Notes: a model not told the origin generated them from the sequence alone. A stretch of 63,383 bases of DNA, filler included, from Deltaproteobacteria bacterium (GCA_016202395.1; 4 parts of 4 records of this genome joined end to end with filler, not necessarily neighbours in it), one strand, 5' to 3'; counted from the whole stretch's first letter, positions 25,409-60,790 are shown. Program-made: numbers and translations.

Positions 25409-25508
25409 NNNNNNNNNNNNNNNNNNNNNNNNNNNNNNNNNNNNNNNNNNNNTTAATTAATTAANNNNNNNNNNNNNNNNNNNNNNNNNNNNNNNNNNNN
25501 NNNNNNNN
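25409..25508. other. Artificial contig linker
   Basis: N44-TTAATTAATTAA-N44 with stops in all six frames; identical to the other two linkers. Confidence 0.97.
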
Positions 25509-25515
25509 CTGTCCA

Positions 25516-26673
25516 ATGGCACGAGCGGAGGTGAGCTATGTCCATTCGGATCATTTGGGTTCGACGAGTGTGGCGACGAACGAGGGTGGGAATGTTCAGC
25601 AAGCTTCAATCTATTCCCCTTACGGTGAAGTTCTCAAAGATCTCAAAGCCGGCGGCATCCAAGCCACGGCGCATCTCTACACCGGCCAAGAACTCGACCC
25701 CGAATCCGCTCTCTACAACTACGTCGCCCGGTGTTATGATTCTGTGCTTTCCCGCTTCACCAGCATCGATCCTGTACAAGGGAATCTCCCGTATGCCTAC
25801 GCCAATAACCGCCCGAATCTCTTTATTGATCCCGATGGGAAAGACCCTGGGCTTGACCTTTTACTGTTGGGAGCTGAAAGTGGCCCCCCTTCGTTCGAGA
25901 ACTTTTTTCTGAGAGATCACCTGGGTAATCTGGTTAGCACCCCAATGGCCTTTAGCCTGGAGGAGATAGGGAATTTTAGGCCACTCCATGCTGTTGATGC
26001 GGCAATAGTTGGTCAGAAACAGTTGATCGTCCGAAACGCCTTCTCGGGGCGAGACTTGCCTTCCGATGCATTGATTAGCCGTCATCTTGGGGGATTGACA
26101 ACAGGAGGGCAAGATACGATTGGGGTGGTCATGAATGCAAATGGGGAGTACGTTGTTTTTCAAGGGCAACATCGGCTGGTGGCCTTGCTGCGCGATGCTT
26201 ACACCGTCTATCCCGTCGAGGAGGGATTTCTCACACTAGAGCAGCAAATGTATCTCCAAGCTCGCAGAATCACGATACAGGTGTTCAAATTTGAGTTCGT
26301 GAGTGAGGGCAATGCCGCGCTAACAGCTGCCAGTGCGCATTTTCAACAGCGATGGGGACGTCCGTTTCCCAGGATGGTCGACGCTGCGATCCACGGAAAG
26401 GTTACCGTCGGGGGTTTTAAAGGGGCAGCGACCCGAGCGGCTGGTCCTATTAGCTCCGCCTTTGCTCTCTATTTTGCCTGGAAGGGGTATCAGGAGACCG
26501 CTGAAGCAACCCGTGGAAATCCTTCCTTAGGATTGTCTGGTGGTTTGTTAGGTGCCACCGGGATTCCCGCGTTTTTTGAGGCCGCTGGAGCCGATTTTTA
26601 CCAAATGATTGGAAGCCTCTGCGCGTTGGGTGGGGGATGCAATTCGACTGAAAGAGATCAACAAGCAGAGTAA
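25516..26673 (+). CDS. Rhs cartridge 1 (5'-truncated): end of signal peptide + Rhs core + ParB/Srx-like C-terminal domain
   Basis: Contig starts at CPMARA|EVSYVHSDHLGS (cf. SCPMAHA in cartridge 2); YTGQELD, ARCYD, DPDG at 25828-25839; C-terminus has GEYVVFQGQHRLVAL. Confidence 0.85.
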   Translation: MARAEVSYVHSDHLGSTSVATNEGGNVQQASIYSPYGEVLKDLKAGGIQATAHLYTGQELDPESALYNYVARCYDSVLSRFTSIDPVQGNLPYAYANNRPNLFIDPDGKDPGLDLLLLGAESGPPSFENFFLRDHLGNLVSTPMAFSLEEIGNFRPLHAVDAAIVGQKQLIVRNAFSGRDLPSDALISRHLGGLTTGGQDTIGVVMNANGEYVVFQGQHRLVALLRDAYTVYPVEEGFLTLEQQMYLQARRITIQVFKFEFVSEGNAALTAASAHFQQRWGRPFPRMVDAAIHGKVTVGGFKGAATRAAGPISSAFALYFAWKGYQETAEATRGNPSLGLSGGLLGATGIPAFFEAAGADFYQMIGSLCALGGGCNSTERDQQAE

Positions 26674-26675
26674 AC

Positions 26676-26696
26676 GGGGTCCGGCTTCGGTGATTC
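26676..26696 (+). repeat. 21-bp module-boundary motif, copy 1 of 7
   Basis: GGGGTCCGGCTTCGGTGATTC, 2 nt after the cartridge 1 stop. Other copies start at 27263, 28883, 30238, 32153, 32819 and 34042. Confidence 0.85.
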
Positions 26697-26720
26697 ACGA
26701 AAAATTTGGAAAGGGTAAGC

Positions 26721-26945
26721 TTAAACGCGTATCGCTTTTTCAATGGGGAGATTCTCAATGCTGATATTCGCAAGGTCTTCAAAACTGAGTCGCTTACTGA
26801 CATCTAAAATTTCAATGCCAACGGCATGTCGATTTTTATCGAGATCTACTGAAATTCCCTCCTCGAGGTCGATGTTATCGTCAACCTCGGCCTCACGAAG
26901 TTGGATGTATAAGGCGTCTGCTTCGTTATCGTATTCGATCTTCAT
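26721..26945 (-). CDS. DUF2283-family antitoxin
   Basis: MKIEYDxEADALYI...DLD...VGIEILD signature. Confidence 0.88.
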   Translation of the reverse strand: MKIEYDNEADALYIQLREAEVDDNIDLEEGISVDLDKNRHAVGIEILDVSKRLSFEDLANISIENLPIEKAIRV

Positions 26946-27226
26946 AATAACTTCACCTCCTTTGGAGGTCTCTTTTTCATGACAGCCGTAATGATAAAAA
27001 ACTCATCGTTCTCTTCAACATACGTTGTTTTTAAAAAGCCATCCGATGTCTTGAGCCACACACCCATTTTTCCTTCGGTCGATCTTTCCACAGCATCAGG
27101 GTTCCGAATAGATTCCTCTACCTTTTTGGGATCGATTTTTCTCCACCGCATTCGGTTCTTTGCATGCCTCGAGTATCGGATCCGATTCACTTTGCTAAAT
27201 ATAGCGTTTTCAAAGATATTAAACAA
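26942..27226 (-). CDS. DUF4258-family (RelE/BrnT-like) toxin; true start may be GTG at 27190
   Basis: YSRHAKNRMRWRKI...I.NPD...IITA; coupled to DUF2283. Confidence 0.8.
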   Translation of the reverse strand: MFNIFENAIFSKVNRIRYSRHAKNRMRWRKIDPKKVEESIRNPDAVERSTEGKMGVWLKTSDGFLKTTYVEENDEFFIITAVMKKRPPKEVKLL

Positions 27227-27262
27227 GCCGCCGGATTCTCACAGGTTTGATGAATTAGTCTT

Positions 27263-27319
27263 GGGGTCTGGCTTCGGTAATTCGGTATTGAGGGAGAGTG
27301 CATGAAACGATGGTTTGTG
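27263..27319 (+). repeat. 57-bp boundary motif + RBS + leader start, duplicated at 30238-30294
   Basis: GGGGTC(T/C)GGCTTCGGTAATTCGGTATTGAGGGAGAGTGCATGAAACGATGGTTTGTG; 56/57 identical. Confidence 0.9.
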
Positions 27320-27379
27320 AGCATAGGGTTTGTGGGGTTGATAGCATGGCAGGAGGCCTCGGCGGAGGTGAGCTATTTT
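27302..27379 (+). pseudogene. Truncated Rhs cartridge: complete signal peptide + AEVSYF only
   Basis: MKRWFVSIGFVGLIAWQEASA|EVSYF, then similarity stops and a DUF2283 gene follows on the opposite strand. Confidence 0.8.
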
Positions 27380-27398
27380 TACAGTGAAAAAATGCAAA

Positions 27399-27623
27399 CT
27401 ACCGTGCAGCTCGGATATCCGATTCTAGTTCATAACCCACCGGCAGGAGGTTCTGAAGATTCAAGTGTTCAGAGGCTCCTAGGATTTCAATCCCTACAAT
27501 CTGGTCGTTCTCACCCATGTCGAGCACCACGTCCTCTGAGACCCTCTTATTTATCACAGGCTGATCTCGATCATCTAGGCGAAGATAGAGCAAATCGGTC
27601 TTGGAGTTATAATGAATCTGCAT
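27399..27623 (-). CDS. DUF2283-family antitoxin
   Basis: MQIHYNSKTDLLYLRL...DMGE..IVGIEIL.AS signature. Confidence 0.85.
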   Translation of the reverse strand: MQIHYNSKTDLLYLRLDDRDQPVINKRVSEDVVLDMGENDQIVGIEILGASEHLNLQNLLPVGYELESDIRAAR

Positions 27624-27625
27624 TT

Positions 27626-27715
27626 TTAATCCTTGATAACATCGTGGATTTCATCCTCACTTGCCCCGCGTTCTTGCGCCCTTTTCAACGTGTGCGGATC
27701 GATTTGAACGTCCAT
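27626..27715 (-). pseudogene. Truncated DUF4258-like toxin (29 aa)
   Basis: Hand-translated MDVQIDPHTLKRAQERGASEDEIHDVIKD*, the H..R..ERG...EI..V N-terminus of the family, directly upstream of DUF2283. Confidence 0.7.
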
Positions 27716-27850
27716 TCAGGGTTTGGCTCCATTTCCGATCAAATCATGGTAAGTTCTACCCACAAGAGGCAATGTAGCAGAGGTGTCTCATGAAAACAAG
27801 GATTGATAACTGTGACAGAAGGGGTCAGTTTTAAGTTTTTAAGTAACGCC

Positions 27851-28900
27851 ATGAAGGTAAGGTTTGAAAAAATAGCGTTGTTATCTTTGGTCTGTGCCAT
27901 TTCCTGTCCAATGGCTCATGCCGAGATGAGCTATTTTCATGCGGATCACCTCGGTTCCACCGCCGTCGGAACAGATTCGTCTGGAGTGGTTCAGCAAGCC
28001 GAGTACTACACTCCGTTTGGAGAGATTTTAAGGGGAGAGGAAAGAGGTGAGGGGGCGACTCCCTATCTCTACACCGGTCAAGAAAAAGACTCTTCCACAG
28101 ACTTTTACTATTTTCAAGCTCGTTACTATGATCCCTTGCTGGCTCGTTTTGTCAGCGCTGATCCGTTAAAAGACGCAAAAAATCCGCAAGATTTTCATCT
28201 TTACGCCTATGCTTGGAACAATCCTTTAAAAGTAATCGACCCTTCAGGAGAGAGCGAGGAAGATCCATTGACCTTGCATCAGATCTTGAGGACCGAAATC
28301 ACTGTCGGTAAGTTTGACAAAAACCTTACTCTTATGCTGGATCCCGCGACAGAACCCCGAGAGCGTGATATTGCTCAGGGGCATGTTGATCACCTGTTGT
28401 CGGCGCGACATATTTATAGCTATGAGCCGGATCCCGTTGGAGTTACCAGCCAAATGCGTGAAAGAATCATTCAGGTTTCAGATCCGGACTTGCGCCGGGA
28501 TCTTCTTCGCAAGTTAGAGAGATCTTTAGGTGTTTACCTGGAGAGATTCACGACTCGTTACCTTAGGGTTACAGAAAAACGGGGAAGGGCAGAAGTAGGG
28601 TCGGTTGTGCTTGCAGCTTTGGTGGGAGCTTTGGTGAGTCGTCGGTTAGGACCTCCTGCCCCTCTTATCACAGAGGGCAATCTTGTTGCCTTTGTGAGGC
28701 ATTTTTATCGTTTTGGAGTTCCGGGGTTAGCTGCGGGGGGTGGAGCTGATGCGGGTTTGAGCAATAGAAAAGGGCTTTACGATTGGAAGATTGAGTATAA
28801 GAGAAGGATGTTTGGTTTGTTGGACGTTCGTCAGCAAGTAATTGAAGATCTTTACCGTGAGGAGGGGGTCCAGTATAGCAGTGGGATCCAGCTTCGGTAA
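27851..28900 (+). CDS. Rhs cartridge 2: signal peptide + Rhs core + unknown helical C-terminal domain
   Basis: MKVRFEKIALLSLVCAISCPMAHA|EMSYFHADHLGS; YTGQEKD; ARYYDP; NNPLKVIDPSG. The stop codon lies inside the boundary motif. Confidence 0.88.
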   Translation: MKVRFEKIALLSLVCAISCPMAHAEMSYFHADHLGSTAVGTDSSGVVQQAEYYTPFGEILRGEERGEGATPYLYTGQEKDSSTDFYYFQARYYDPLLARFVSADPLKDAKNPQDFHLYAYAWNNPLKVIDPSGESEEDPLTLHQILRTEITVGKFDKNLTLMLDPATEPRERDIAQGHVDHLLSARHIYSYEPDPVGVTSQMRERIIQVSDPDLRRDLLRKLERSLGVYLERFTTRYLRVTEKRGRAEVGSVVLAALVGALVSRRLGPPAPLITEGNLVAFVRHFYRFGVPGLAAGGGADAGLSNRKGLYDWKIEYKRRMFGLLDVRQQVIEDLYREEGVQYSSGIQLR

Positions 28901-28989
28901 TTCACGCGTCCTGGATTCCCGCTTGCGCGGGAATGACGGATAGATTGTCGCCACGTGGCGACAATGTATCTGGGGTCCCGTCGCGTGTT
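28883..28989 (+). repeat. Composite spacer: boundary motif + ATTCCC-N8-GGGAAT REP-like hairpin + perfect 22-bp palindrome
   Basis: GGGATCCAGCTTCGGTAATTC (28883-28903); ATTCCC-GCTTGCGC-GGGAATGACG (28915-28938); ATTGTCGCCACGTGGCGACAAT (28944-28965). Recurs at 32153-32256 and 34042-34122. Confidence 0.88.
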
Positions 28990-29012
28990 GACGAGTTGTT
29001 GGGTTTTTAATC

Positions 29013-30218
29013 ATGATGGAAAAATTTAAAAAGATAGCGTTAGGGTTTTTCGGAACTGTTTTGTGTGGACAGATGGCTCAGGCGGAGGTGAGCTATGTCC
29101 ATTCGGATCATTTGGGTTCGACGAGTGTGGCGACAAATTCAGCTGGCACGGTTCAGCAAGTGGCAATCTATTCCCCTTACGGTGCGATTTTAAGGGGAGA
29201 GGAAAGAGGTGAGGGGGCGACGGCCTATCTCTACACCGGCCAAGAACTCGACCGCGGATCGAATCTCTCCTACTACGGCGCCCGGTATTACGATCCGACG
29301 CTTTCCCGTTTCCTCAGCATTGACCTAGTTCAAGGGAACCTCCCCTACACCTATGTCAACAACAATCCAATTATTTTAATTGATCCCGACGGGAATATCC
29401 CTTTGATCCCTATTTTATTGGGTTTTGCTGTTGGTGGAATGATTGGTTTGAAATCGGATGGGGCGGACGATCCTCTCGAAGAGACGTATGATGCTAAGAG
29501 TGGAGGAGTTGGTGCAGTTGCAGGTGCAACGGGAGTCGCCGTTTTTTATACGGGAGCTCCTGCTGCACTTAGGCTTGCTGCGCGATATCCTATTCCAGCT
29601 GGGTTGCTGGGATGGGGTGGACGAGAAGCTCTGAATACCTATGAAAATGGTGGAGCTGGAGGATCAGCGTTGGCGAATGCAGCTTTTTTCGATGATCTTA
29701 TTGAATTGGTTGGACGGAATTCTTTTAGGGTTGAAGGCGCTGTGAGCGAAGGTTTAAGGGGTGGAATGTTCAGTCGAGCATCGCTGATTGGGATGGTACG
29801 GGCCGCTTTAGAGAGAAGCCCCATGTCTCGGGCTGCAGCTCAAGCTTTGATTCCAGCCATAAGAGGTCAGTTGCAGTGGATACATGGCACACGCCAAAGG
29901 GCTTTGCTAATGAATATGGGTGGTTTATTGAAACGAAACGCTCAACCTGCGTTTCGTAGAAATCCAGAACAGTTTAATGCTTTAAGGGATTCTTTCATTC
30001 AGCTTCGTCGAGGGGTTGGGGATGATGTGCCTCAGGTGACGGAAGATAATGTAGTGGAGTGGGTTTATTATGCTCTAAGCGAGGTGGAACATCTTGCAGG
30101 GCGAGAAGCTTTGACAAACTTGGGGCCGGTTGACAAGTATGTGGAGTTTGCTCAGCAATTGTCGAACGCAGTCTCTTTGCCGGAAGGTCTAACTTCCCTT
30201 CCCGGTGTTCTTCATTGA
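29013..30218 (+). CDS. Rhs cartridge 3: signal peptide + Rhs core + Gly-rich hydrophobic/helical C-terminal domain
   Basis: MMEKFKKIALGFFGTVLCGQMAQA|EVSYVHSDHLGS; GARYYDP; NNPIILIDPDG (DPDG 29382-29393). Confidence 0.88.
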   Translation: MMEKFKKIALGFFGTVLCGQMAQAEVSYVHSDHLGSTSVATNSAGTVQQVAIYSPYGAILRGEERGEGATAYLYTGQELDRGSNLSYYGARYYDPTLSRFLSIDLVQGNLPYTYVNNNPIILIDPDGNIPLIPILLGFAVGGMIGLKSDGADDPLEETYDAKSGGVGAVAGATGVAVFYTGAPAALRLAARYPIPAGLLGWGGREALNTYENGGAGGSALANAAFFDDLIELVGRNSFRVEGAVSEGLRGGMFSRASLIGMVRAALERSPMSRAAAQALIPAIRGQLQWIHGTRQRALLMNMGGLLKRNAQPAFRRNPEQFNALRDSFIQLRRGVGDDVPQVTEDNVVEWVYYALSEVEHLAGREALTNLGPVDKYVEFAQQLSNAVSLPEGLTSLPGVLH

Positions 30219-30276
30219 TGATCAAACAAAGGAGAATGGGGTCCGGCTTCGGTAATTCGGTATTGAGGGAGAGTGC

Positions 30277-30312
30277 ATGAAACGATGGTTTGTGGGCGCC
30301 GGGTTGGCTTGA
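30277..30312 (+). pseudogene. Remnant of a cartridge signal peptide (MKRWFVGAGLA*)
   Basis: Follows the duplicated 57-bp leader; its TGA stop lies in the -35 box of the downstream TA promoter. Confidence 0.7.
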
Positions 30313-30340
30313 CTTTATGACCAGACCAGACTAGACTAGA
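30309..30340 (+). promoter_or_regulatory. Sigma70-like promoter of the phd-vapC module with short tandem repeats
   Basis: TTGACT-N17-TAGACT overlapping CCAGA CCAGA CTAGA CTAGA. Confidence 0.6.
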
Positions 30341-30360
30341 AAATAGAGGACACAAGATTT

Positions 30361-30597
30361 ATGTACATTACAAACATCTCTGAGGCCAAGGCTCAGCTAT
30401 CGGCCCTGATCGAGAAGGTGTTGGCCGGCGCTGAAATCATCATTGGGAAGGCGGGCAAACCTGTGGCTAAGCTTATTCCCTATCGACGCAGTGAGGTTCC
30501 GCGCAGGCCAGGGGCTCTCAAAGGAAAGATTAAAATAGCCAAGGATTTTGACCTACTGCCTAAAGATATCGCTCTCTCTTTTGGGGCGGAAGAATGA
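30361..30597 (+). CDS. Phd/YefM-family antitoxin
   Basis: NISEAKAQLSALIE...GKPVAKL...R.PG.LKG signature. Confidence 0.92.
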   Translation: MYITNISEAKAQLSALIEKVLAGAEIIIGKAGKPVAKLIPYRRSEVPRRPGALKGKIKIAKDFDLLPKDIALSFGAEE

Positions 30598-30971
30598 ACC
30601 TCCTTTTGGATACGCATATTCTGTTGTGGTGGTTGGACGATCATCCAGGGTTGTCTGAGAGGGAACGGCGTGCAATCGGTGATGGAGAGAACAGCGTGTG
30701 GGTGAGCACTGCGGTAATTTGGGAGGTTCGTATAAAACAGGCCCTCGGCAAACTCACTCTTCCTTCCAGCTTTCGCACCGTGTTGGAGGAGGAACCGTTT
30801 TTGAGTCTCGATGTCACGTCGGAACATGCCCATGCAGTTTATGAACTCCCAATGCATCATCGGGATCCTTTTGACCGGATGCTCATTGCGCAGGCTCAGG
30901 TGGAGCGATTTACGCTCGTCACCCACGATCCTTTCTTCAAAAAATATGACATCGATGTTATGGAAGTTTAA
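30594..30971 (+). CDS. vapC: PIN-domain VapC toxin
   Basis: LLDTHILLW, WE, HRDPFDRMLIAQA, LVTHD. Confidence 0.93.
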   Translation: MNLLLDTHILLWWLDDHPGLSERERRAIGDGENSVWVSTAVIWEVRIKQALGKLTLPSSFRTVLEEEPFLSLDVTSEHAHAVYELPMHHRDPFDRMLIAQAQVERFTLVTHDPFFKKYDIDVMEV

Positions 30972-32147
30972 ATGAATCAAATGGGGCGATGGTTTGCACA
31001 AGGTGGATTGGTCTTCTTGCTCTTAGGGCAAGGAGTTTATGCCGAGGTGAGCTATTTTCATTCGGATCATTTGGGCTCAACGAGTGTGACGACGAATTCG
31101 GCGGGCGCGGTTCAGCAGATCGAGTACTACACTCCGTTTGGAGAGATTTTAAGGGGAGAGGAAAGAGGTGAGGAGGCGACTCCCTATCTCTACACCGGCC
31201 AAGAACTCGATTCTGAAAGCGCCCTTTATTATTTGGGAGCCCGTTATGTCGATACGCAGATGGGGCGATTTCTTTCTGCGGACCCGATTCAAAGGTTTTC
31301 TCCCTATGCTTATGTATTGAATAACCCGATTCGCCTTGTCGATCCGGATGGCAATGCAGCAGAAGAGTCCGGAATGGCTCCCACTCCAGAGCCCACTCCC
31401 GACCCAGTGCCCACTCCAAGCCCCTATCCAGGTTATCAAGAACCCACTGACAGAGAGGTAGCCGTAACAGGGTTACTTGTTGCTGCTCCTTTTGCTGCTG
31501 TAGGCGCAGTTTATACTTGGCCTTATATCGCGGCGGCTGGAGAATCTATTATGGGGGGTGTGATTGGGTATTTTCTTCGACATTCCGGTCCGTTGATTCT
31601 AGGAGGGGAAGTGGTGCGACGAGCAGCGGCTCGGTCTCCAATTCCCGATTTGGGTGTTCTTTCAAGTCGGGTGACCGCGCTTGAACAGCGAATGGCTGCC
31701 CTGCAAAGTGAGCTTGAAGCGGGCATACGCACTGCTCAACAATCTCAAGACGTGTTAGCTTTGATAGATCAGTTTACCGGTGTGCTTAGAGGCGTTACTT
31801 CTTTATTGAATAGCACCGTAGGGCAACGGGGTTTTGATTTCGGAGCGGTGGCCGAGCGTCTAGCCCGCAATCCGCGACTGTTCCAAGGCATTCAAGGTAT
31901 TTTGGGCAGTACCCCCATTAATCCGGCTGATCAGGCTATTATGGCTGTTAATGCTGCTCCAGAGGCAATAGCGCTCGGTCGTATTATCGAACGGCTTTCA
32001 GCGTATAGTCAATATAATATTCCTGGCATTATAGAAGCGGCTCGGACAAATCCACGTTTTCTAGAAGCTACTGTGCAACTTCTCGGTAAAGATGCACAGC
32101 TCGTTGCATCGGTTGAAAGGCTGATGCAGAAAGGCCCTCTTCATTAA
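30972..32147 (+). CDS. Rhs cartridge 4: signal peptide + Rhs core + Pro/Thr linker, TM segment and coiled-coil C-terminal domain
   Basis: MNQMGRWFAQGGLVFLLLGQGVYA|EVSYFHSDHLGS; GARYVD; NNPIRLVDPDG; PTPEPTPDPVPTPSP. Confidence 0.88.
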   Translation: MNQMGRWFAQGGLVFLLLGQGVYAEVSYFHSDHLGSTSVTTNSAGAVQQIEYYTPFGEILRGEERGEEATPYLYTGQELDSESALYYLGARYVDTQMGRFLSADPIQRFSPYAYVLNNPIRLVDPDGNAAEESGMAPTPEPTPDPVPTPSPYPGYQEPTDREVAVTGLLVAAPFAAVGAVYTWPYIAAAGESIMGGVIGYFLRHSGPLILGGEVVRRAAARSPIPDLGVLSSRVTALEQRMAALQSELEAGIRTAQQSQDVLALIDQFTGVLRGVTSLLNSTVGQRGFDFGAVAERLARNPRLFQGIQGILGSTPINPADQAIMAVNAAPEAIALGRIIERLSAYSQYNIPGIIEAARTNPRFLEATVQLLGKDAQLVASVERLMQKGPLH

Positions 32148-32152
32148 GAAAT

Positions 32153-32256
32153 GGAGTCCGGCTTCGGCAATTCAGGAGTCATCCCCGTTTGCACGGGAAT
32201 GACGGATAGATTGTTGCCACGTGGCGACAATGTAACTGGGGCCCCGTCGCGTGTTG
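32153..32256 (+). repeat. Composite spacer copy 2
   Basis: GGAGTCCGGCTTCGGCAATTC; GTCATCCCCGTTTGCACGGGAATGAC hairpin (32178-32203); ATTGTTGCCACGTGGCGACAAT (32210-32231, one mismatch). Confidence 0.88.
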
Positions 32257-32330
32257 GCAAGTGGTGTGAGGCTTGCCCTGTTGCATCTATTTTCATGATT
32301 TGGTAAGATTTATCTAGAGGAGGTAAGATT

Positions 32331-32561
32331 ATGGCAAGGGTAGAAGCATTCGCCACGAAAATTCCGGTCAATTTGAAGCAGGCTCTAGATCAAGTCTGTG
32401 AGAAGCTTGGCCTGCGCAAAAACTTTGTGGTGGAATCGGCGCTACGAGAAAAAATCGAGGATCTCCGAGACACCTACGATCTCGAACAAGCCATGGGTGA
32501 AGCCACAGGTTTTCACTCCTGGGAAAAGGTTAAGAAAGAACTGGGGCTCCCCAAAAAATGA
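32331..32561 (+). CDS. RHH/CopG-like antitoxin
   Basis: Short RHH-like N-terminus and SWEKVKKELG tail; TTGCAT-N17-TAAGAT promoter at 32281-32309; coupled to relE. Confidence 0.8.
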   Translation: MARVEAFATKIPVNLKQALDQVCEKLGLRKNFVVESALREKIEDLRDTYDLEQAMGEATGFHSWEKVKKELGLPKK

Positions 32562-32812
32562 GATATCCTGTTGAACTCGAAAATCGGGCCAGGCGAGAGT
32601 TCCTAGACCTCCCCGAAGAAGTGCAACGAAGGCTATCACAGGCTTTGGACGATCTGGAAGTCAATCCTCGTCCCCCAGGAGCCAAAAAACTTACGGGTAA
32701 AGAAGGGTACCGTATCCGCAAAGGGGATTACCGGATCCTCTACACCATTGACGACTCAGAGCGTCTTGTAAGAGTTTATAGGATTGGCCATCGCCGTGAG
32801 ATCTATCGTTAA
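32558..32812 (+). CDS. relE: RelE/ParE-family toxin
   Basis: NPRPPGAKKL, YRIRKGDYRILY, IGHRREIYR. Confidence 0.93.
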   Translation: MRYPVELENRARREFLDLPEEVQRRLSQALDDLEVNPRPPGAKKLTGKEGYRIRKGDYRILYTIDDSERLVRVYRIGHRREIYR

Positions 32813-32818
32813 AGAAAC

Positions 32819-32951
32819 GGGGTCAGACTTCGGTATGGGGTGTCATCCCCGCGAAAGCGGGAATCCCGTCATTCCCACGAAAGTGGGAATCCAGTACTGG
32901 ATCCCCGCTTCCGCGGGGATGACGGGTTCTCCCGTTTGCACGGGAATGACG
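32819..32951. repeat. Boundary motif followed by four CGTC-type REP-like units in head-to-head arrangement
   Basis: GGGGTCAGACTTCGGTA; TGTCATCCCCGCGAAAGCGGGAATCC; CGTCATTCCCACGAAAGTGGGAATCCAG; then two inverted units ending in ATGACG, centred on CCAGTACTGG. Confidence 0.88.
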
Positions 32952-32994
32952 GATGGGAGCCCTTTGCGGTCAACTTACAGATGAGGGTTGTTCA

Positions 32995-34029
32995 ATGATA
33001 CGATGGAGTTTCATTTTTGCGTTGTGTTTTGGCATGGCTCATGCCGAGGTGAGCTATTTTCACTCGGATCATTTGGGCTCAACGAGTGTGACGACGAATT
33101 CGGCGGGCGCGGTACAGCAGATCGAGTACTACACTCCGTTTGGAGAGATTTTAAGGGGAGAGGAAAGAGGTGAGGGGGCGACTCCCTATCTCTACACCGC
33201 CCAAGAACTCGACCGCGACTCTGAACTATTCTATTACAACGCCCGGTACTATGATCCTTCTTTAGCCCGTTTTTACTCTCGGGATCCTCTCTTTAAAACC
33301 AGCCCCCAAAAACTCAATCCCTATCTTTATGTGGGAGGCAATCCCTGTCGATTCACCGATCCTTCGGGAGAGGATTGGAGGGATGTTGTAAGCGGGGCTT
33401 GGGACGAGACGAAGTACATTCTCTCCGAAGGAACGATTTTACCCCGTGGGCCTGCCAAGGGGGTCGATGTCGAGGATTACGAGAGGGGTCGTTTAGCTGC
33501 CCGTGCAGCTATGGCTACGAAAGGGGTTGCTGAGATTACGGGTGGGATCGTTTTGATTGGAGGGGGAGTTGGTCTTGAGGTGGGATCGCTCGGCACGGGA
33601 ACTTTGGTTGCCACAGGCGCAGTCGTTGTTGGGAGTGTTTTGGTGAGGGATGGGGCTGCAAACATCGGTATAGCTGCAGTCGAGTCGATGAATTCTTACA
33701 TGAAATCCCACGAAGCTCCCGGACCTTCTGGAAAATCGGTTAGGGATGGGCACAGCTTGCAGTGGGAGACAGAAGGAAAGTTTCCTGAGGAGCTTGACTA
33801 CGAGGGTGAGAGAATTGGTCAAATGAGGGAAACAAGTTCCCGAGCGAGAAAAGAATTGGATCAGGCCCGTCGTTCCTTCGAGGCATATCCTGATGACAGC
33901 ACTTGGCAAGGACTCCAGAAATCGATACGTCGCGCAAGGGAGTTATCTCCTTCGTTGCGTGCGGGGCCTCGGGAGGCTCTAGAGACAGCGATTGGCGATG
34001 CGGAAATGGCATTGAGGGCGCAAGAATGA
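32995..34029 (+). CDS. Rhs cartridge 5: signal peptide + Rhs core + glycine-zipper-like segment and small C-terminal domain
   Basis: MIRWSFIFALCFGMAHA|EVSYFHSDHLGS (GAGGG RBS upstream); NARYYDP; GNPCRFTDPSG; GGIVLIGGGVGLEVGSLGTGTLVATGAVVVG. Confidence 0.88.
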   Translation: MIRWSFIFALCFGMAHAEVSYFHSDHLGSTSVTTNSAGAVQQIEYYTPFGEILRGEERGEGATPYLYTAQELDRDSELFYYNARYYDPSLARFYSRDPLFKTSPQKLNPYLYVGGNPCRFTDPSGEDWRDVVSGAWDETKYILSEGTILPRGPAKGVDVEDYERGRLAARAAMATKGVAEITGGIVLIGGGVGLEVGSLGTGTLVATGAVVVGSVLVRDGAANIGIAAVESMNSYMKSHEAPGPSGKSVRDGHSLQWETEGKFPEELDYEGERIGQMRETSSRARKELDQARRSFEAYPDDSTWQGLQKSIRRARELSPSLRAGPREALETAIGDAEMALRAQE

Positions 34030-34041
34030 GATGTAGGAAAG

Positions 34042-34122
34042 GGGGTTAGGCTTTGGTCATTCAAGAGTCATCCCCGCTTTCGCAGGAATGACGGATAGAT
34101 TGTCGCCACGTGGCGACAATCT
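34042..34122 (+). repeat. Composite spacer copy 3 (end of array)
   Basis: GGGGTTAGGCTTTGGTCATTC; GTCATCCCCGCTTTCGCAGGAATGAC; perfect 26-bp palindrome AGATTGTCGCCACGTGGCGACAATCT (34097-34122). Confidence 0.88.
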
Positions 34123-34130
34123 TCGGTATT

Positions 34131-35159
34131 TTAAGGGATGAGCAGAATCTTGCCGAACTGCTTTTTATCTTCCATGTATTTTTGGGCGGAGGCGGCCTCT
34201 TGGAGAGGGAAAATTTTATCGACCACGGCCCGCAACCGTTTCTCCTCAAAACGTTTTAGCACCTCCAACAGCTCCGATTTGGCCCCCATGTAAGAGCCCA
34301 GGATAGAAATCTTGCGCGAGAAAACCCATCGAATATCGAGGGTGGCCTCTGGGCCGGTGGTCGCTCCACAAGTAACCAATCGACCATTTTTCGCGAGTGA
34401 CCGAATACTTTTCTCCCACGTAGCAGGCCCCACATGTTCAAACACCACATCGACACCTCGCCCTCCGGTCCACGCTTTGGCCTCTTTTACAATATCATCG
34501 GTGTAGTGGTTGAGGGTTTCATCGGCCCCGAGCCCTCGACATTTTTGAAGTTTCTCTTCGCTTCCCGCTGTCGTTATCACTTGGGCTCCAAGAAGTTTGG
34601 CCAATTGGATCGCGGCGATCCCAACGCCGCTGCCTCCACCAATAATTAAAACCTTTTCAAACGGTTTGAGCTTGGCGCGCGTGACCAGCATGTGCCACGC
34701 CGTCAAAAAAACTAACGGCACCGAGGCAGCCTCTTCAAACGTGAGACCGGTCGGAATCGGCAGAGCGTTTACGGCGGGAACTTTCACGTATTCCGCATAA
34801 CCTCCATCGATCTGATAGCCAACCAGTTGATAGAGATCGCAAGAGTTATCAAGCCCTTGAAGACACATCTCGCATCGGCCACAGCTAATGCCGGGGGCCA
34901 CAAGAACCCGTTCCCCTTTTCGAAGATGCGCCACGGCCTCCCCTTTTTCAACAATCTCTCCGGCGGCATCATTCCCGCTAATATGGGGGAGAGGAATCTT
35001 CACAAACGGTAGACCTTGGCGCACCCAAATGTCCAGATGATTCAAAGCGCAAGCCTTCACACGGATCAGAACATCGTTCGGCCCGATCTTAGGCTCTGGA
35101 GCCTCTTCATATTTTAAGACTTCGGCTCCGCCATGTTGATGAAATCGCACCGCTTTCAT
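34131..35159 (-). CDS. Zinc-binding MDR alcohol dehydrogenase / quinone oxidoreductase
   Basis: MKAVRF, ALNHLD, CGRCEMC...C structural zinc site, GGGSGVG, FGKILL; start at 35159 overlaps the HEPN stop. Confidence 0.92.
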   Translation of the reverse strand: MKAVRFHQHGGAEVLKYEEAPEPKIGPNDVLIRVKACALNHLDIWVRQGLPFVKIPLPHISGNDAAGEIVEKGEAVAHLRKGERVLVAPGISCGRCEMCLQGLDNSCDLYQLVGYQIDGGYAEYVKVPAVNALPIPTGLTFEEAASVPLVFLTAWHMLVTRAKLKPFEKVLIIGGGSGVGIAAIQLAKLLGAQVITTAGSEEKLQKCRGLGADETLNHYTDDIVKEAKAWTGGRGVDVVFEHVGPATWEKSIRSLAKNGRLVTCGATTGPEATLDIRWVFSRKISILGSYMGAKSELLEVLKRFEEKRLRAVVDKIFPLQEAASAQKYMEDKKQFGKILLIP

Positions 35160-35500
35160 AATTTTGAAGGAGCGATCTTTTCTAGAATGGTAACGAGAGG
35201 TGGCACATCCTGAGTCACGATCTGCCATAGGATATCGAAGTCCACGGTATCGTAACCGTGGATGAGTCGATTTCGCAAACTCACAATCTCTGGCCATGGG
35301 ATTTGGGGGAAACGTTCTCGTTCCTCTTTTGGGACTCGACTAGCCGCTTCTCCTATAATTTCAAGTAATCGGACAAGTGAGAGATTAAGCTGCCGGTCGT
35401 CGTCAAGATCACGTCGACTTTTGCCTCGAATCATAGCGACAACTTCTCTAGCATGATCTAGCATATGATGAAAAGGCACTAAGGGATCACGTCGCGACAT
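35156..35500 (-). CDS. HEPN (DUF86) RNase toxin
   Basis: LEIIGEAA, IPW, RNRLIHGY (Rx4HxY). Confidence 0.92.
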   Translation of the reverse strand: MSRRDPLVPFHHMLDHAREVVAMIRGKSRRDLDDDRQLNLSLVRLLEIIGEAASRVPKEERERFPQIPWPEIVSLRNRLIHGYDTVDFDILWQIVTQDVPPLVTILEKIAPSKL

Positions 35501-35783
35501 ACTCTACCTCTGCTTCTTCAAGCACTTGGTTACGAAAATAAGGGCTCAGAGAATGAGATGTGTTTAGATCAACCCTTCGGCCAAGGATTTGTGAAAGTTC
35601 GTCTTCCATAGCAAAGAAAGCTAGCCCAGGGATGTGCCCGGGTTCAAATTCTACTAAAATATCCACATCACTTTTAGCAAAGAAATCGTTTCTTAACGCA
35701 GAACCAAAAATAGCCAATTTGCGGATGTGATGTTTACGACAAAAAGCGGCGATCTTTACTTTGTCAAAAATAACACGGGCCAT
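35487..35783 (-). CDS. MNT minimal nucleotidyltransferase antitoxin
   Basis: FGSALRND...SDVDILVEF, GRRVDL; inverted repeat TCCTCTAAAT...ATTTAGAGGA upstream (35809-35835). Confidence 0.92.
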   Translation of the reverse strand: MARVIFDKVKIAAFCRKHHIRKLAIFGSALRNDFFAKSDVDILVEFEPGHIPGLAFFAMEDELSQILGRRVDLNTSHSLSPYFRNQVLEEAEVEYVAT

Positions 35784-38560: not shown

Positions 38561-39151
38561 ATGAAGCAGATTTTTAATTTGCTATTTATTTTTTCAGCTC
38601 TCTTAATTGGGATGGCGTTGGGAGTGGTGGAGAAAGAGAACATTATTGAAATTTTGGGGGGTTATTTTGGGAGTCCGAATACTTCTCAGGAAGGATCCTC
38701 TCCTACTTCGGGGGGGACGACTCCAACAACAACGACCACAACCGTGAACGATGGATCGGCGATTCAGTTGATTCGTGTGATTCGAGTGATTGATGGAGAT
38801 ACCGTTGAGCTCGAAGGAGGAGATCGGGTTCGTTACGTCGGTGTCGATACTCCTGAGAGGGGGGATCCCTTCTTTGACGAAGCGACGAATCGGAACCGAG
38901 AGCTTGTTGAAGGACAAATCATTGCTCTGAAGATTTGCGCGGGGGAACCCAAAGATCACTATGGCCGATGGCTCGGTTGGGTCTACAAGGGACCCAGCCT
39001 TGTGAATGCGGAGCTCATCCGTGAAGGACTAGGGTACCTGATGATTATTCCCCCTTGCGGCCTCGACAAAGTGAGCGACCTGACTCAAGCTCATCTCCAA
39101 GCCCAACAACAACACTTCGGCCTTTGGTCCAATCACGAGCAGTTGGAGTAG
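38561..39151 (+). CDS. Thermonuclease (SNase) family protein, membrane-anchored
   Basis: VIDGDT, VRYVGVDTPE, DHYGRWL, NAELIREG, GLW; N-terminal TM and Ser/Thr linker. Confidence 0.92.
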   Translation: MKQIFNLLFIFSALLIGMALGVVEKENIIEILGGYFGSPNTSQEGSSPTSGGTTPTTTTTTVNDGSAIQLIRVIRVIDGDTVELEGGDRVRYVGVDTPERGDPFFDEATNRNRELVEGQIIALKICAGEPKDHYGRWLGWVYKGPSLVNAELIREGLGYLMIIPPCGLDKVSDLTQAHLQAQQQHFGLWSNHEQLE

Positions 39152-42100
39152 CCGCAGTCGAAGCAAGTGGGTTCTTTGCAGCCGCTCACAAATTCCACGT
39201 TGGAGCTGTAGCACTTCGGGCAGTAATCTAGGGTCTCCGCCGCGCTTCTTTCTTCTGCTTTGGCCTCTGTTTCCGGGGTGGTTGTGGTGTGTCCGTTTCC
39301 AGAGGCAGTTTTGCCGTTGCCCGATGGCTGTGTCTTCCCATTGGGGGACTCCGCGGCCTTCTTGAGCTTGCCTGTTTTTTTAAGATGCTCCCTCAAAACC
39401 TGAGAGATCGCGTGAGGAATGGAATCGACCCGCGTGGGGCCAAAACCGTAGGGGCGATCCCCTTTAGCGGAGTTCAGGTGTTTCAAGATCCGCTCGGGGT
39501 CTCCGCCGGTTTCAAAGTACTTCGACAGCAAGATGCCGATGACGCTGGTCAAACAATTGACCTCCGTTCCGATCGGTGGAATGTTGGTAAAGATCCGATA
39601 AGGGCCATCTTTGGTGTAGATGATATTCACATGCAGTGTCCCATAGCCGGTCTTCTTCTCGTAATATTCCGAGGTCACTCCTTCACTGAAATTAGGCACC
39701 TGGGCCTTGGACTCCTTCTTTTCGGTCTTCGTCGCGTGAAGATTGAGCACTTGCTGCGCCTTGCTCCCATCGCGATAAATCGTAAGCCCTTTGCAGCCGA
39801 GCTCGTAAGCAAGCAGGTAGGCTCTGGCTAGATCCTCGCGCGGCGTTTCGTTGGGGCAATTAATGGTTTTTGACACCGCATTATCCGTATGTTTCTGAAA
39901 TGCCGCTTGCGCCCGAATGTGTTGCTCGAATGAAACCTCATGAGAAGTTGCAAAGAGTCGCTGGATCTTCTCGGGGATCTCCGCAATGCCACGGATCGAT
40001 TTGTGGTTCTTGTCAATCTTATCCCACAAAACCTCAGGGCGAAGACCGAAATGGTTATTCTCTTCAGCCACCCGTTTGAAAAGGGGATTGATCTCGACAA
40101 AAGTATCCTCCGGAGCCGGCGTTTTCCCTTGCTTAACGGCATCGATCCCTTTGGCATTGTATCGGGTGTAAGAGATCGCGAAGAACGGCTCAATGCCGCT
40201 CCCTTGCAAGCCGGCTGCGATCGCGATCGTCCCTGTGGGAGCGATGGTGGTTCGAGCGCAGTTTCGGGGGCGGCGCGCCTCTCCGCGGAAGTAGGGGCCG
40301 GTGGCATCATAGATGCTCTGTTTGAAATTAGGGAAAACACCCCGTTCTCGGGCGAGGGTTTCGGAAGCCTCTAAAGAAGAACGGTTCATAAACTCCATGA
40401 CCTCTTCCGCTTTGTGAATCGCCTCTTCGGAGTCGTAGGGGACACCGAGTTTCACCAATGTCTCGGCCCATCCCATCACACCGAGGCCAATCCGACGATT
40501 CCCTTTGGCGATCTCTTCAATCTCAGGGATAGGATAGTTGTTCACATCGATGACGTTATCGAGGAAATGGATGCATTCGTAGATCGTTTCTCGAAGGCGA
40601 GGATAATCCATCTCCGGATAGCCATTCTGGATCGTGATGAACTTGGCGAGATTAATGGAACCGAGGTTACAGGGCTCGTTGGGCAGCAATGGCTGTTCTC
40701 CGCACTGCGTCACAACTAGCCCAGCGGCGACGATCGAATGTGTTTCCGGCTCAGTTGTACAGTATACATCCGTCGTTCCAGCGGGCTCGATGATGCGGAC
40801 ACAGTCCGTGAAAGTATCCTGGTTTGAGCGTCGCTGCTTCGTGCTGAGCCAAGCGAGGGCCTTCTTCTGTTTGGAGGGGGTAAGGAAACCTATCTGATCT
40901 AGGAAGCGGTCGCGGCTCGCACCGTCGAGCACCAGCTCGTACTGAGCGGCGTACTTGTAGAGCTTCGGTTTCCTGTTTGAGTCCGGCATCATCTTCTCTC
41001 CCGCCTTGCGGCGCAGATAGAGCTTGGCCACGATCCCCTCGTTCAAGAGCAGGAGCTGCACCTGCTTCAAGAGCTGCTTGGAGCTGTTGGCCAGGCGGAC
41101 GGAACAGGAGGCCTTGTGCGCCGACACGTTCACTGTGCCATCGGCGGTGAACAGGGCCGAGAGAAAACCGAGCACGGCCTCCCGCGGCGCACTCCAGATC
41201 GCTTCAGGGACTTCCTTGAGAAGGCCGTCGGGTTCGTGCAGCCCGAGGCTCTTAAGGAAATAATAGGCCCCGGACTTGTAGTAGAGGGCCAGGCTCCCGT
41301 TGCGCTCGATCGCGGTCCCCTCCATGCCGAGCCATGCCTTCAGGAGCGCCTGGAACTTGGGGGCGAGGCACCGCTTCTCCTCGTCGCCAAACATGAGCCC
41401 CACGGTGTGATTGGGGACGCTCCGCCCCTCCGGAGTCTCGGAGCTCACCCAGCCATCCCCCACGGCCCAGCCGAGAAGCTCGCCGAGCTCACGGCTCCAT
41501 TTCTTCGGAGGGTTGGCCTCCCCGCGCTCGATCCTTGCACGGAGTTTGTCCTCGGGGAGGAACGGCGGCAGCGCATCGTTGCTGTTCCACGCTCCGGCGC
41601 CGGACTGGATCAGAATCTCGTCGTCTGGCCGAAGGTCCTTGAGCTCCACAGGGCCGGTTGGGGTGAAGAACTTGTGGTCCGCGGTCGCCGTCACCTCGAG
41701 GCCGTGCTCAGTCTCCAGACGGAACACCGGCCAGTCTTTACGGGTCTTGAAGACTGGGAGGGCCCGACGGAGCGTCACCCCTGTTTCCATTTGGTAGGCC
41801 AAGGCGGTGTTCCCGACCGCGTAGGTGGCTCGGGCGGTTAGGACACGGTTGTCCGTGGCAACCGAGATTTCCGTCTGCTCCTGGTACAGCTTATCGAAGG
41901 TGAGAAGGCCGCAGTCGGTGGCGAGCCGCACGTCCCCCGCAAAGCAGGGATTGGTGGCTTCGATTGGGCCGATCGCAGGAGTTGGATTAGATCCCGAGTC
42001 GTTGATCCGATCGAGAACGACATAACCCGGATCCCCAGATCTCCAAGCGCCATCAATAATAAGATTGAAAAGCTCGCGAGCCTTCATCTTTCCGGCCGGT

Positions 42101-43008: not shown

Positions 43009-43111
43009 TGCGATTTCCTCCTTGACCATGTTTTTGAAAAAAGAACCCCCTTCGCGAGGCCCTACCACTTAATTCTCTGAACGAATCCAGAAGATGTAGC
43101 TGAAGACCGGA

Positions 43112-52262: not shown

Positions 52263-52362
52263 NNNNNNNNNNNNNNNNNNNNNNNNNNNNNNNNNNNNNN
52301 NNNNNNTTAATTAATTAANNNNNNNNNNNNNNNNNNNNNNNNNNNNNNNNNNNNNNNNNNNN
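52263..52362. other. Artificial contig linker
   Basis: N44-TTAATTAATTAA-N44. Confidence 0.97.
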
Positions 52363-60690: not shown

Positions 60691-60790
60691 NNNNNNNNNN
60701 NNNNNNNNNNNNNNNNNNNNNNNNNNNNNNNNNNTTAATTAATTAANNNNNNNNNNNNNNNNNNNNNNNNNNNNNNNNNNNNNNNNNNNN
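60691..60790. other. Artificial contig linker
   Basis: N44-TTAATTAATTAA-N44. Confidence 0.97.

Follow-up and report, generated by a model that had tools for sequence, protein, structure and literature searches.

Do short Rhs-like genes that stand in an array, each behind its own divergent leader, encode exported proteins under selection, or are they silent recombination donors? The question is raised by positions 25509-34029 of the window, that is, the whole 63,383-nucleotide stretch analysed here, which is made up of four contigs of Deltaproteobacteria bacterium (GCA_016202395.1) joined by N44-TTAATTAATTAA-N44 spacers. The host of the array is an uncultured groundwater bacterium known as a metagenome bin. 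One spacer occupies 25409-25508, so that 25509 is the true start of the array contig. The array comprises five intact genes (R1, with its 5' end cut, and R3-R6) plus two decayed copies, all on the + strand. The unit plan is a Sec-type leader ending in A/V-x-A, the motif E[VM]SY-x-H-x-DHLGS, an Rhs-associated core of ~100 aa and an unrelated tail of 216-277 aa. R1 (25509-26673; ORF 25516-26673) stays open up to the first base of the contig, with the leader end ...CPMARA (25510-25527) running directly into EVSY, a core at 25528-25839 and a tail at 25840-26670. The corresponding parts are leader MKVRF...MAHA (27851-27922), EMSY, core 27923-28249 and tail 28250-28897 in R3 (27851-28900); leader MMEKF...MAQA (29013-29084), EVSY, core 29085-29393 and tail 29394-30215 in R4 (29013-30218); leader MNQMGRW...VYA (30972-31043), EVSY, core 31044-31352 and tail 31353-32144 in R5 (30972-32147); and leader MIRW...MAHA (32995-33045), EVSY, core 33046-33369 and tail 33370-34026 in R6 (32995-34029). 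R2 is a remnant (27302-27388) with an intact leader, MKRWFVSIGFVGLIAWQEASA (MKRW...ASA), and EVSYFYSE, after which homology is lost; its remaining ORF (to 27793) runs antisense to a DUF2283 gene at 27399-27623. A leader stump, MKRWFVGAGLA-stop (30277-30312), is a copy of the R2 5' end (93% DNA identity, repeat family D7). ORFs and leaders are thus as a preliminary description of an array of mini-Rhs genes, each with its own leader, had written them, and the A-x-A or V-x-A ending right before E[VM]SY was seen at the R1 leader end and in R2-R6. Every intact unit with its 5' end on the contig has its own ATG and signal-peptide-like leader, unlike orphan rhs-CT modules.

We asked how far the leaders behave as signal peptides, using a crude test (basic n-region, hydrophobic h-region, small residues at -3/-1, length 15-35). 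All five complete leaders (R2-R6) passed. The background was 14 of 98 window ORFs of at least 100 aa, R4 and R5 included, and most of the other passing ORFs look like genuine exported proteins. When the residue order of the leaders was shuffled, 23-42% of 2000 trials still gave a pass, which puts much of the leader signal down to composition. In an alignment of 42 minis, 37 rows have A at position -1 and the remaining 5 have G or S, and the cut fell 7 residues ahead of the D of DHLGS in 33, figures that are partly circular because the rows were chosen with the same crude test.

Relatives were sought by a profile search over 1.84 billion representatives, of which the best 150 matches were listed; 146 proteins were examined (140 of those 150 plus 6 from another search). 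Sixty-one were short, with at most 450 aa and the core motif among their first 60 residues, and by the crude test 41 had a leader directly before the core. No leader was recognisable in the remaining 20, of which some are probably gene calls cut short and others have additional RHS-repeat sequence in its place. The layout of leader, core and variable tail is a real family. A scan of genome contigs yielded no minis and two ~2900-aa TcB/TcC-like proteins; of two metagenome scans for related loci, one was empty and the other gave one Bacteroidota-like Rhs locus of another type. In the main texts of the open-access literature, no paper with such an arrangement turned up. The leader classes are met again in other metagenomes, joined to unrelated tails. 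Within a class, identity was 62-100% for the leader, 46-72% for the core and 14-25% for the tail, so that leader conservation equals or exceeds that of the core while the tails are unrelated; R6 and its relative P0034 share 17/17 leader residues, 59% of the core and 19% of the tail. Because the same leader classes recur elsewhere with unrelated tails, silent, decaying donors are hard to reconcile with the data. The preliminary claim that these are expressed, exported proteins under selection is only partly upheld: the leaders have signal character, a fixed cleavage position and conservation well beyond the array, expression is only presumed, and two of the seven leader-bearing units (R2 and the stump) are decayed.

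The conserved head of the mature mini is only ~100 aa, consisting of the last YD repeat and the Rhs-associated core. TIGR03696 (Rhs_assc_core, cut-off 32.5 bits) matched R1 (E 8e-17), R3 (2.7e-23), R4 (1.3e-19), R5 (6e-22) and R6 (1.1e-21), with no match in R2. Only positions 1132/1156-1260 of the 1261 in the RHS_core model are covered; the minis have no long YD/RHS repeat run and no significant Pfam RHS-family match, the single weak one being PF03527 on R1 (E 0.089, below cut-off). Across the alignment of 42 minis four residues never vary, namely R91, D94 and the aspartates of the two DPxG motifs, D104 and D124. In R4 the first motif has DL in place of DP. The two Asp motifs lie 15 residues apart, versus 17 in P. 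laumondii Rhs1, whose plug is an aspartyl-protease domain with a catalytic Asp in the second motif (PMC8636562). We take the mini core to be a putative C-terminal plug, an aspartyl-protease domain carrying both Asp motifs. An AF2 model of R5 (mean pLDDT 62.7) shows a beta core for which Foldseek ranked Rhs, TcC and teneurin chains highest in the PDB, with no match reaching E 1e-3 (best 5.6e-3).

A 3053-aa fused Rhs (1742-10903, + strand), on another contig of the window, contains shell, TM hairpin, core and tail in one chain. Its hairpin (residues ~2529-2597, nt 9326-9532) reads TM1-WRWK-TM2, the second helix ending SVQA before AP, and is placed exactly between the last shell strand ('..MVVASLQD') and the DHLGS-type strand; the core (residues 2628-2759, nt 9623-10018) and the tail (10019-10900) follow. 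A script found no hydrophobic stretch at this split point in any of 63 canonical long relatives. By eye, one other protein, P0090, has a hairpin, plus a lipobox. The mini leaders sit at the TM2 position of the hairpin, with the last shell strand on one side and the DHLGS strand on the other, a correspondence new to this analysis, and have the R-W-rich n-region in common with it. The preliminary description had itself raised the alternative that the leaders are remnants of the TM hairpin of a longer gene; this is half true, in that their position is that of the second hairpin helix. The leaders probably derive from, or are ancestral to, an internal signal sequence. From their location at the TM2 position of a longer Rhs it follows that the minis would be split-Rhs halves, not free-standing mini toxins.

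The same observations could be read in another way, with the units as orphan modules that were displaced from a full-length rhs gene of the hairpin type upstream of the contig start, mainly recombination donors whose leaders are the retained second helix. The TM2 position and shared n-region, the cut of the array at the contig end, the DNA identity of 62-87% between cores of array units and the two decayed units all agree with this, and a leader better conserved than the core would also suit a recombination handle. However, ATG, basic n-region and A-x-A site are kept in every intact unit, 41 relatives show the same plan in complete ORFs, and orphan modules, as described in PMC4436062, are without trafficking modules and followed by immunity genes. 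The R5 core is also only 29% identical to that of the 3053-aa Rhs, the hairpin-type gene of the window; homologous exchange with this gene is unlikely because the cores are too far apart. We consider the orphan-module reading quite improbable.

The proposed complementary half is a signal-peptide RHS-repeat protein of 1750 aa without core (10972-16224, + strand), likewise on another contig of the window than the array. By BLASTP, used for this comparison as MAFFT misaligned the tails, it is collinear with a canonical Rhs until ~30 residues before the DHLGS motif of the latter. It stops at the split point (...HVFMGG..RRIATIDNEDGS) and continues into SSGCSS, a TM helix and RRRRRYQS (tag 16042-16221); this tag, which may resemble MYXO-CTERM-type tags, gave only a sub-threshold Loki-CTERM match in NCBIfam (17.1 vs 19.9 bits). 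Its orthologues P0175 and P0177 likewise stop there, with a G-C motif, TM helix and RRRR and no core, and P0177 shares its source locus-tag prefix with the mini P0009. A complex of shell residues 851-1700 and R5 residues 25-130 was modelled with scores of 0.88, 0.88 and 0.87 (best control 0.00); of 80 solved complexes 58 attained the mark, as did 2 of 110 mismatched pairs. At least 88% of contacts were common to the runs, with partner pLDDT of at least 82, and shell residues 1684-1690 paired with mini residues 25-33. The model suggests compatibility of shell and mini rather than binding, and the pass may stem from what the model has learned of solved Rhs cocoons made of a single chain. As shell and array belong to separate contigs of one metagenome bin, their linkage, and even their co-residence in one cell, is only presumed.

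We conclude, with a probability of about 0.55, that the minis are Sec-exported, self-cleaving plug-plus-cargo cartridges, probably partners of a plug-less shell. The leader, a putative Sec type-I signal peptide, would quite probably take the mini across the inner membrane and be cut between A-x-A and E. With slightly less than an even chance, the ~100-aa plug would then dock strand-to-strand into the separately exported shell, rebuilding a whole Rhs with exchangeable cargo, as the fission/fusion pattern and the complex model suggest; the shell would be held by its C-terminal TM plus the Arg-rich tag. Against docking counts that a separately exported tail would have to find its way into the shell. 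From the invariant residues, the odds are about even that the tail is freed by self-cleavage of the plug behind the second DPxG motif. The array would be a store of alternative cartridges, with the conserved leader-plus-core 5' module letting recombination swap tails.

The tails are extremely diverse, with 98 BLAST clusters among 122. Array tails matched no Pfam family even at E 10 and no toxin family; those of R1, R3 and R4 had no sequence match in the PDB, and that of R1 no relative among 5.8 billion proteins in a near-length search. ESM Atlas returned nothing for the R5 tail and, for R1, ParB_N/ParBc_2 at a score under 0.8, which is a lead only. A GxHR-like motif seen by eye in tail sequence is a candidate. 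A single-sequence AF2 model of the R1 tail was unusable (pLDDT 35.5), and the R5 tail was mostly helical in its model. Immediately downstream of R1 and R3-R6 no cognate immunity-like ORF was found, the gaps of 47-183 bp being without ORF; what adjoins the minis instead is a toxin-antitoxin pair, the next mini or an alcohol dehydrogenase gene. This is unexpected of an antibacterial toxin that a producer exports into its own periplasm, and it counts against the cartridge reading as well as against the minis being autonomous Sec-exported polymorphic toxins, in which the plug would serve only as a peptidase that releases itself, the tail would be the effector and no shell would take part. Signal peptide, invariant Asp motifs and hypervariable tails would fit such toxins, and minis far outnumber recognisable plug-less shells among the matches listed. 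However, R5 alone is modelled only moderately (pLDDT 55-90 over residues 25-110, <50 around the cleavage motif) compared with its values in the shell, and exact complementarity at the split point would be a coincidence. This alternative is unlikely.

R3, R4 and R5 have KD-hydrophobic windows after the DPxG motif, the R4 tail opening with a hydrophobic Gly-rich segment, and such TM-like segments at the start of several tails could arrest export in the membrane of the producer itself, which counts against the cartridge reading. These segments would also fit minis that are inner-membrane-anchored non-toxins, the leader exporting the plug, the hydrophobic segments anchoring it and the helical remainder being structural or signalling; mostly helical tails without toxin-family match and the missing immunity genes point the same way. 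Extreme tail diversity on a constant head is, however, a hallmark of conflict systems, and the R1 tail has no such window at that threshold, which makes this explanation very improbable.

Between the units lie a putative toxin-antitoxin pair of DUF2283 (26721-26945) and DUF4258 (26942-27226) on the - strand, VapB (30361-30597) with VapC PIN (30594-30971) downstream of the leader stump, and, on the + strand, a 76-aa ORF without Pfam match, possibly an antitoxin (32331-32561), with a ParE-family toxin gene (32558-32812). Inter-cassette repeats (26676-34154, + strand) comprise a GGGGTCCGGCTTCGGTAATTC-type 21-mer after each unit (26676, 27263, 28883, 30238 and 32153; weaker copies at 32815 and 34038) and REP-like palindromic units (CCCGC..GCGGGAATGACGG) at 28918, 32184, 32840-32952 and 34073, with unitig depth in the thousands. 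In a check by eye for integron attC sites, the GTTRRRY word occurred only in the 21-mer copy at 34038, and the available part of the array contig holds no integron integrase. Promoter and terminator scans gave chance-level results. Shine-Dalgarno motifs precede R2, the stump and R6, not R3-R5, a pattern that is uninformative because only 12 of 30 other window genes show one.

Positions 27851-34029 are present in four DNA runs, all of one groundwater study; no RNA run was listed as containing them. Short unitigs of those DNA runs gave no extension upstream of 25509. Unitig depth was 2-4 times as great over core segments as over the unique tails, and, as the array runs off the contig, further cartridges beyond its end are plausible, although the extra depth may equally come from other strains. 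One joint that goes back from 27903 to 25509 hints that the missing R1 leader resembles that of R3; many other unitig joints fall in the REP element and represent community-wide repeats.

Rhs toxins are understood as single chains folded around their own toxin and riding T6SS, T7SS or Tc machinery, and TcC contains several hundred residues of repeats. The minis resemble enterobacterial Rhs and orphan rhs-CT in the RHS-associated core with DPxG...DPxG, the hypervariable tail and tandem alternative cartridges sharing core sequence. Unlike Rhs toxins they keep only the last repeat and no shell, unlike the orphan modules of the source text they have their own start codon and predicted signal peptide, and unlike both they have no immunity gene after them and no PAAR or VgrG context in the window. 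The Y. entomophaga Tc toxin has a two-polypeptide TcB-TcC cocoon with alternative TcC cargo genes at other loci (PMC11067744). The container proposed here would similarly be completed by a second, exchangeable chain bringing plug/protease and cargo, but that chain would be the plug alone and both chains have predicted Sec signals, in contrast to the cytoplasmic assembly of TcB-TcC. Signal-peptide Rhs/WapA-type toxins (PMC12704120) and Neisseria MafB (PMC4436062, PMC4287609) are Sec signal-peptide toxins with a conserved head, variable tail and cassette arrays, a plan that the minis would share; yet WapA has a full repeat shell in one chain, the MafB head is DUF1020 rather than an Rhs plug, and both have immunity genes, of which none was found for the minis. 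Several mini tails resemble Tse5, an Rhs toxin whose C-terminal domain inserts into membranes and forms pores (PMC10684867, PMC9637101), in having hydrophobic Gly-rich segments right after the cleavage motif, but Tse5 is a single-chain T6SS effector, and no sequence or fold match to the minis was found.

If the reading as cartridges is right, a widespread plug-plus-cargo class with Sec signals would be a new delivery logic for polymorphic toxins, to which the matching plug-less shell and the fused form with a hairpin at the exact split point would likewise add. Tentatively, we picture an Rhs machine of two pieces that meet outside the cytoplasm, either in the periplasm or at the cell surface, where any cartridge could close the same tag-anchored shell. 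The hairpin of the fused form would then combine a stop-transfer sequence with an internal signal peptide behind it, giving the same two pieces from one chain, and the missing immunity genes would mean that the cargo is harmless until loaded, or aimed at non-kin. This raises a folding question, that of cocoon loading in trans after Sec export. The tails would constitute a pool of ~100 unrelated, unannotated domains without immunity partners, and a source of new activities.

The mini-Rhs genes R1–R6, which when intact have a leader, an Rhs core and a variable tail, all lie on the plus strand at the extreme start of the second contig (25509–52262). They come from a groundwater metagenome, and the nearest relatives of this uncultured bacterium are labelled "Deltaproteobacteria bacterium" at source. 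The window consists of four contigs with N44-TTAATTAATTAA-N44 spacers at 25409–25508, 52263–52362 and 60691–60790; it is not one molecule, so gene adjacency across the spacers is uninformative. R1 (25516–26673; leader end ...CPMARA) has a frame open to the first base of its contig, in agreement with the preliminary description, which had the array running off the contig. It is followed by the decayed unit R2 (from 27302), R3 (27851–28900), R4 (29013–30218), a leader stump of 11 codons (from 30277), R5 (30972–32147) and R6 (32995–34029). A 21-nt repeat stands 3′ of every array unit, and among the array ORFs examined no immunity-sized ORF was found 3′ of R1 or R3–R6. Toxin-antitoxin genes of the DUF2283/DUF4258, VapB/VapC and ParE types lie between the units. 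The two decayed units have 69 nt in common at 93% identity (27262–27330 and 30237–30305). This stretch takes in a Shine-Dalgarno motif as well as the 21-mer repeat and the leader's initial ~10 codons; beyond it the units split, one into a DUF2283 gene on the minus strand and the other into vapBC. The sequence suggests that toxin-antitoxin genes took the place of two cartridge bodies at nearly the same position.

REP-like palindromic units (CCCGC..GCGGGAATGACGG plus TTGTCGCCACGTGGCGACAA) occur at 28915–28999, 32181–32265, 32840–32954 and 34070–34154, and within the window are confined to the array. Their unitig depth reaches hundreds to thousands in the source metagenomes, which marks them as a community-wide repeat. 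They translate to '..IPA.AGMT..'-type peptides, and a sub-threshold Rfam match to DUF3577 RNA (31.2 vs 42.6 bits) covers 32825–32923 in the REP region. The ~10 kb around the array hold four toxin-antitoxin-like pairs (DUF2283/DUF4258, VapBC, a ParE pair and, just past the array at 35156–35783 on the minus strand, a HepT/MNT nucleotidyltransferase pair), as well as a lone second DUF2283 gene at 27399–27623. At 39133–43068 (minus strand) an intein carrying a LAGLIDADG endonuclease domain interrupts a ribonucleotide reductase large subunit gene (Pfam matches Ribonuc_red_lgC, Intein_splicing and LAGLIDADG_3).

The mini leaders read as previously written, each ending A-x-A or V-x-A right before E[VM]SY-x-H-x-DHLGS. 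Signal character was scored with a crude script (basic n-region, uncharged hydrophobic h-region, small residues at –3 and –1), which all five complete leaders passed. The script also passed 14 of the 98 window ORFs of at least 100 aa, most of which resemble genuine exported proteins, and 23–42% of leaders with shuffled residue order; much of what it detects is therefore composition, and the crude test is weak on its own. A leader-plus-core profile run against 1.84 billion representative proteins gave 289,053 matches at E 1e-3 or better, with the best 150 listed. We examined 146 relatives, namely 140 of these best 150 of 289,053 and 6 others, and 61 of the 146 were at most 450 aa long with the core motif within the first 60 residues. 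The script was passed by 41 of the 61, bearing out the earlier claim that signal character is conserved. The 20 failing sequences begin at or near the core (e.g. P0006 and P0035, the latter the database call of R1; probably truncated gene calls), carry additional RHS-repeat sequence of the '..IFAGxQRIA..' type, or have hydrophilic N-termini.

Four window minis, 36 of the 41 passers (five short or doubtful ones left out) and the relatives P0007 and P0009 were aligned (42 rows). At –1, 37 rows have A, four have G and one has S; at –3, 33/42 have A or V; and in 33/42 the predicted cut precedes the D of DHLGS by 7 residues. The cleavage position thus appears conserved, as had been proposed. These figures characterise the class and do not prove it, and they are partly circular, since rows were picked with the same crude test. 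We consider comparison between samples the stronger evidence that the leaders are signal peptides. The same leader classes reappear in other samples joined to different tails: leader, core and tail identities are 100%, 59% and 19% for R6 and P0034, 83%, 60% and 18% for R4 and P0007, and 79%, 62% and 22% for R5 and P0002. Conserved as well as the catalytic head while the tails are unrelated, the leader is marked as belonging to a polymorphic protein's constant region, and it lacks the look of upstream DNA that is drifting.

The head following the leader matches TIGR03696 (RHS repeat-associated core; NCBIfam, E 8e-17 to 2.7e-23) in R1 and R3–R6. The full RHS_core model is matched over no more than its last ~105–130 positions, and public annotation calls the minis 'RHS repeat-associated core domain-containing protein'. 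The predicted mature mini would therefore comprise the last YD repeat, a ~100-aa core and 216–277 unrelated residues. The core ends DPxG-(15 residues)-DPxG; both motif aspartates, D104 and D124, are invariant in the 42 aligned minis, as are R91, D94, P55, G57 and others. In Photorhabdus laumondii Rhs1 the C-terminal plug (residues 1263–1357) is an aspartyl-protease domain; cleavage comes after two DPLGL motifs spaced 17 residues apart, the second of which supplies the catalytic Asp (PMC8636562). We predict that the mini head is likewise an Rhs plug/protease. An AF2 model of R5 (mean pLDDT 62.7) has a leader helix, a beta head (pLDDT 55–90 at residues 25–110, <50 at 111–128) and a helical tail. 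Its top Foldseek PDB matches are Rhs, TcB-TcC, SGS1 and teneurin chains (~80–125 columns, 22–35% identity), none at E 1e-3 (best 5.6e-3); the modelled tail had no Foldseek PDB match.

Cut after DPxG, 122 tails fell into 98 separate BLAST clusters. The mini tails gave no Pfam match even at E 10, and the R1 tail had no relative in a near-length search of 5.8 billion proteins. Hydrophobic windows of TM-helix length (KD >1.4 over 19 residues) are present in the tails of R3, R4 and R5, that of R4 beginning right at the DPxG motif, and by eye in many relatives and the 3053-aa fused form. These windows are what a set of membrane-anchored non-toxins might display; set beside the diversity of the tails, we regard that reading as very improbable.

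The minis appear complementary to a second gene. The shell (P0032; 10972–16224, first contig; 1750 aa) combines an N-terminal signal peptide with RHS repeats and lacks an Rhs core. Its C-terminus reads ..HVFMGG..RRIATIDNEDGS, followed by SSGCSS, a TM helix and finally RRRRRYQS-stop; the shell's nearest relatives P0175 and P0177 have the same ending (G-C-G/S-G-E-A, TM helix, RRRR), and another relative, P0176, is without the TM helix. P0177 and the mini P0009 have a common source locus-tag prefix. The C-terminal tag matches Loki-CTERM at sub-threshold level only. Directly 3′ of the shell gene, a 706-aa ORF (16312–18432, plus strand) starts with a leader of the lipoprotein type (..APSGC). Its match to VolA/Pla-1 phospholipase is weak (E 1.1e-19, far under the family cut-off), and the product may be cargo that is exported on its own and lacks an Rhs plug.

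The fused form (1742–10903, first contig; 3053 aa) has a signal-peptide-like N-terminus, an SpvB match below threshold and a core at residues 2680–2759. Its last shell strand, ..RYFGIPGTSMVVASLQD, is directly followed by GPIACG, a TM helix (GLLAVLFYLFLFIGL), WRWK-IRFHPG, a second hydrophobic helix ending SVQA before AP, a 30-residue linker, the DHLGS-type strand RFFMNDYRGNLAV, the core, DPSG and a 294-aa tail. Distant relatives of this gene type in other MAGs (~2900 aa; L001 2471–11248 and L002 2444–11164; 46% identity in the core) have a TcB-like N-terminus, a canonical core and no hairpin. Canonical long relatives read ..IFAGxQRIA(8–10 residues)YYHxDHLGS, and the script found a hydrophobic stretch at the shell/core joint in 0/63. 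By eye, the long Rhs P0090 (2079 aa, another sample) has a TM hairpin right before the core, its second helix ending in a lipobox (LTGC before E), making it an independent case of a putative internal signal sequence at this joint. The shell is collinear with canonical P0150 by BLASTP to ~30 residues ahead of the latter's DHLGS. It stops after the 'RIA' strand, the minis begin, past the predicted cleavage site, at the next strand, and the fused form has its hairpin inserted exactly there; from these endings, starts and collinearity, the three line up at one joint.

The second helix of the fused form resembles the mini leaders (R/W-rich n-region, A-x-A end), and by position the leaders are equivalent to it. 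This is the part that stands of the refuting scenario raised beforehand, that the leaders are remnants of a longer gene's hairpin; yet they are complete N-terminal signals conserved across many samples. The same positional match would favour the minis being orphan modules displaced from a hairpin-type gene further upstream, serving mainly as recombination donors, and core DNA identity among the units is 62–87%. The fused-form core is only 29% identical to that of R5, which excludes the window's own fused gene as recombination partner, and we think this origin improbable.

Shell residues 851–1700 (25-row alignment) were modelled with R5 residues 25–130 (42-row alignment). The complex scored 0.88, 0.88 and 0.87, against 0.00 for the best of three controls, with at least 88% of contacts common between runs and partner pLDDT of at least 82. 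The score mark is reached by 58/80 solved complexes and 2/110 mismatched pairs, counts that are only rough here because the alignments were made in this analysis. The first strand of R5 (25–33) lies against the last strand of the shell (1684–1690), and the rest of the head touches the barrel interior (shell 1180–1621). Structures of single-chain Rhs cocoons with the same plug are already solved, and the predictor may have passed this pair by reproducing them. The model shows a plug-shaped hole in the shell that a mini can fill, as compatibility in a model rather than binding in the cell. Minis acting as free, self-releasing secreted toxins with no shell involved would also suit the leaders and invariant DPxG motifs; given the complementary joint and this fit, we hold that to be unlikely.

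The individual parts, namely Rhs cores, Sec signals, cassette arrays and the two-chain cocoons of Tc toxins, are already known; their combination here differs from each known case compared. Tc toxins likewise form a two-chain cocoon, but TcC supplies much of the shell whereas the minis would supply the plug only. MafB has a head of another kind, and WapA is described as keeping the shell within one chain. Orphan rhs-CT modules are described without trafficking modules and with immunity genes (PMC4436062), whereas the minis have their own predicted Sec leader and no adjoining immunity-sized ORF. In the main text of open-access literature we found no description of plug-only Rhs proteins with a signal peptide, of tagged shells lacking the plug, or of fused forms with a hairpin.

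Sequence analysis establishes the layout, the invariant residues of the predicted protease, the hypervariable tails, the complementary split point and the hairpin-bearing fused form. In the mechanism we propose, a mini would be exported by Sec and its leader cleaved; the plug would dock outside the cytoplasm into the tagged, plug-less shell; and the mini would cleave itself after the second DPxG motif. The array would then supply alternative cartridges, and the leader-plus-core module would be the handle for recombination.
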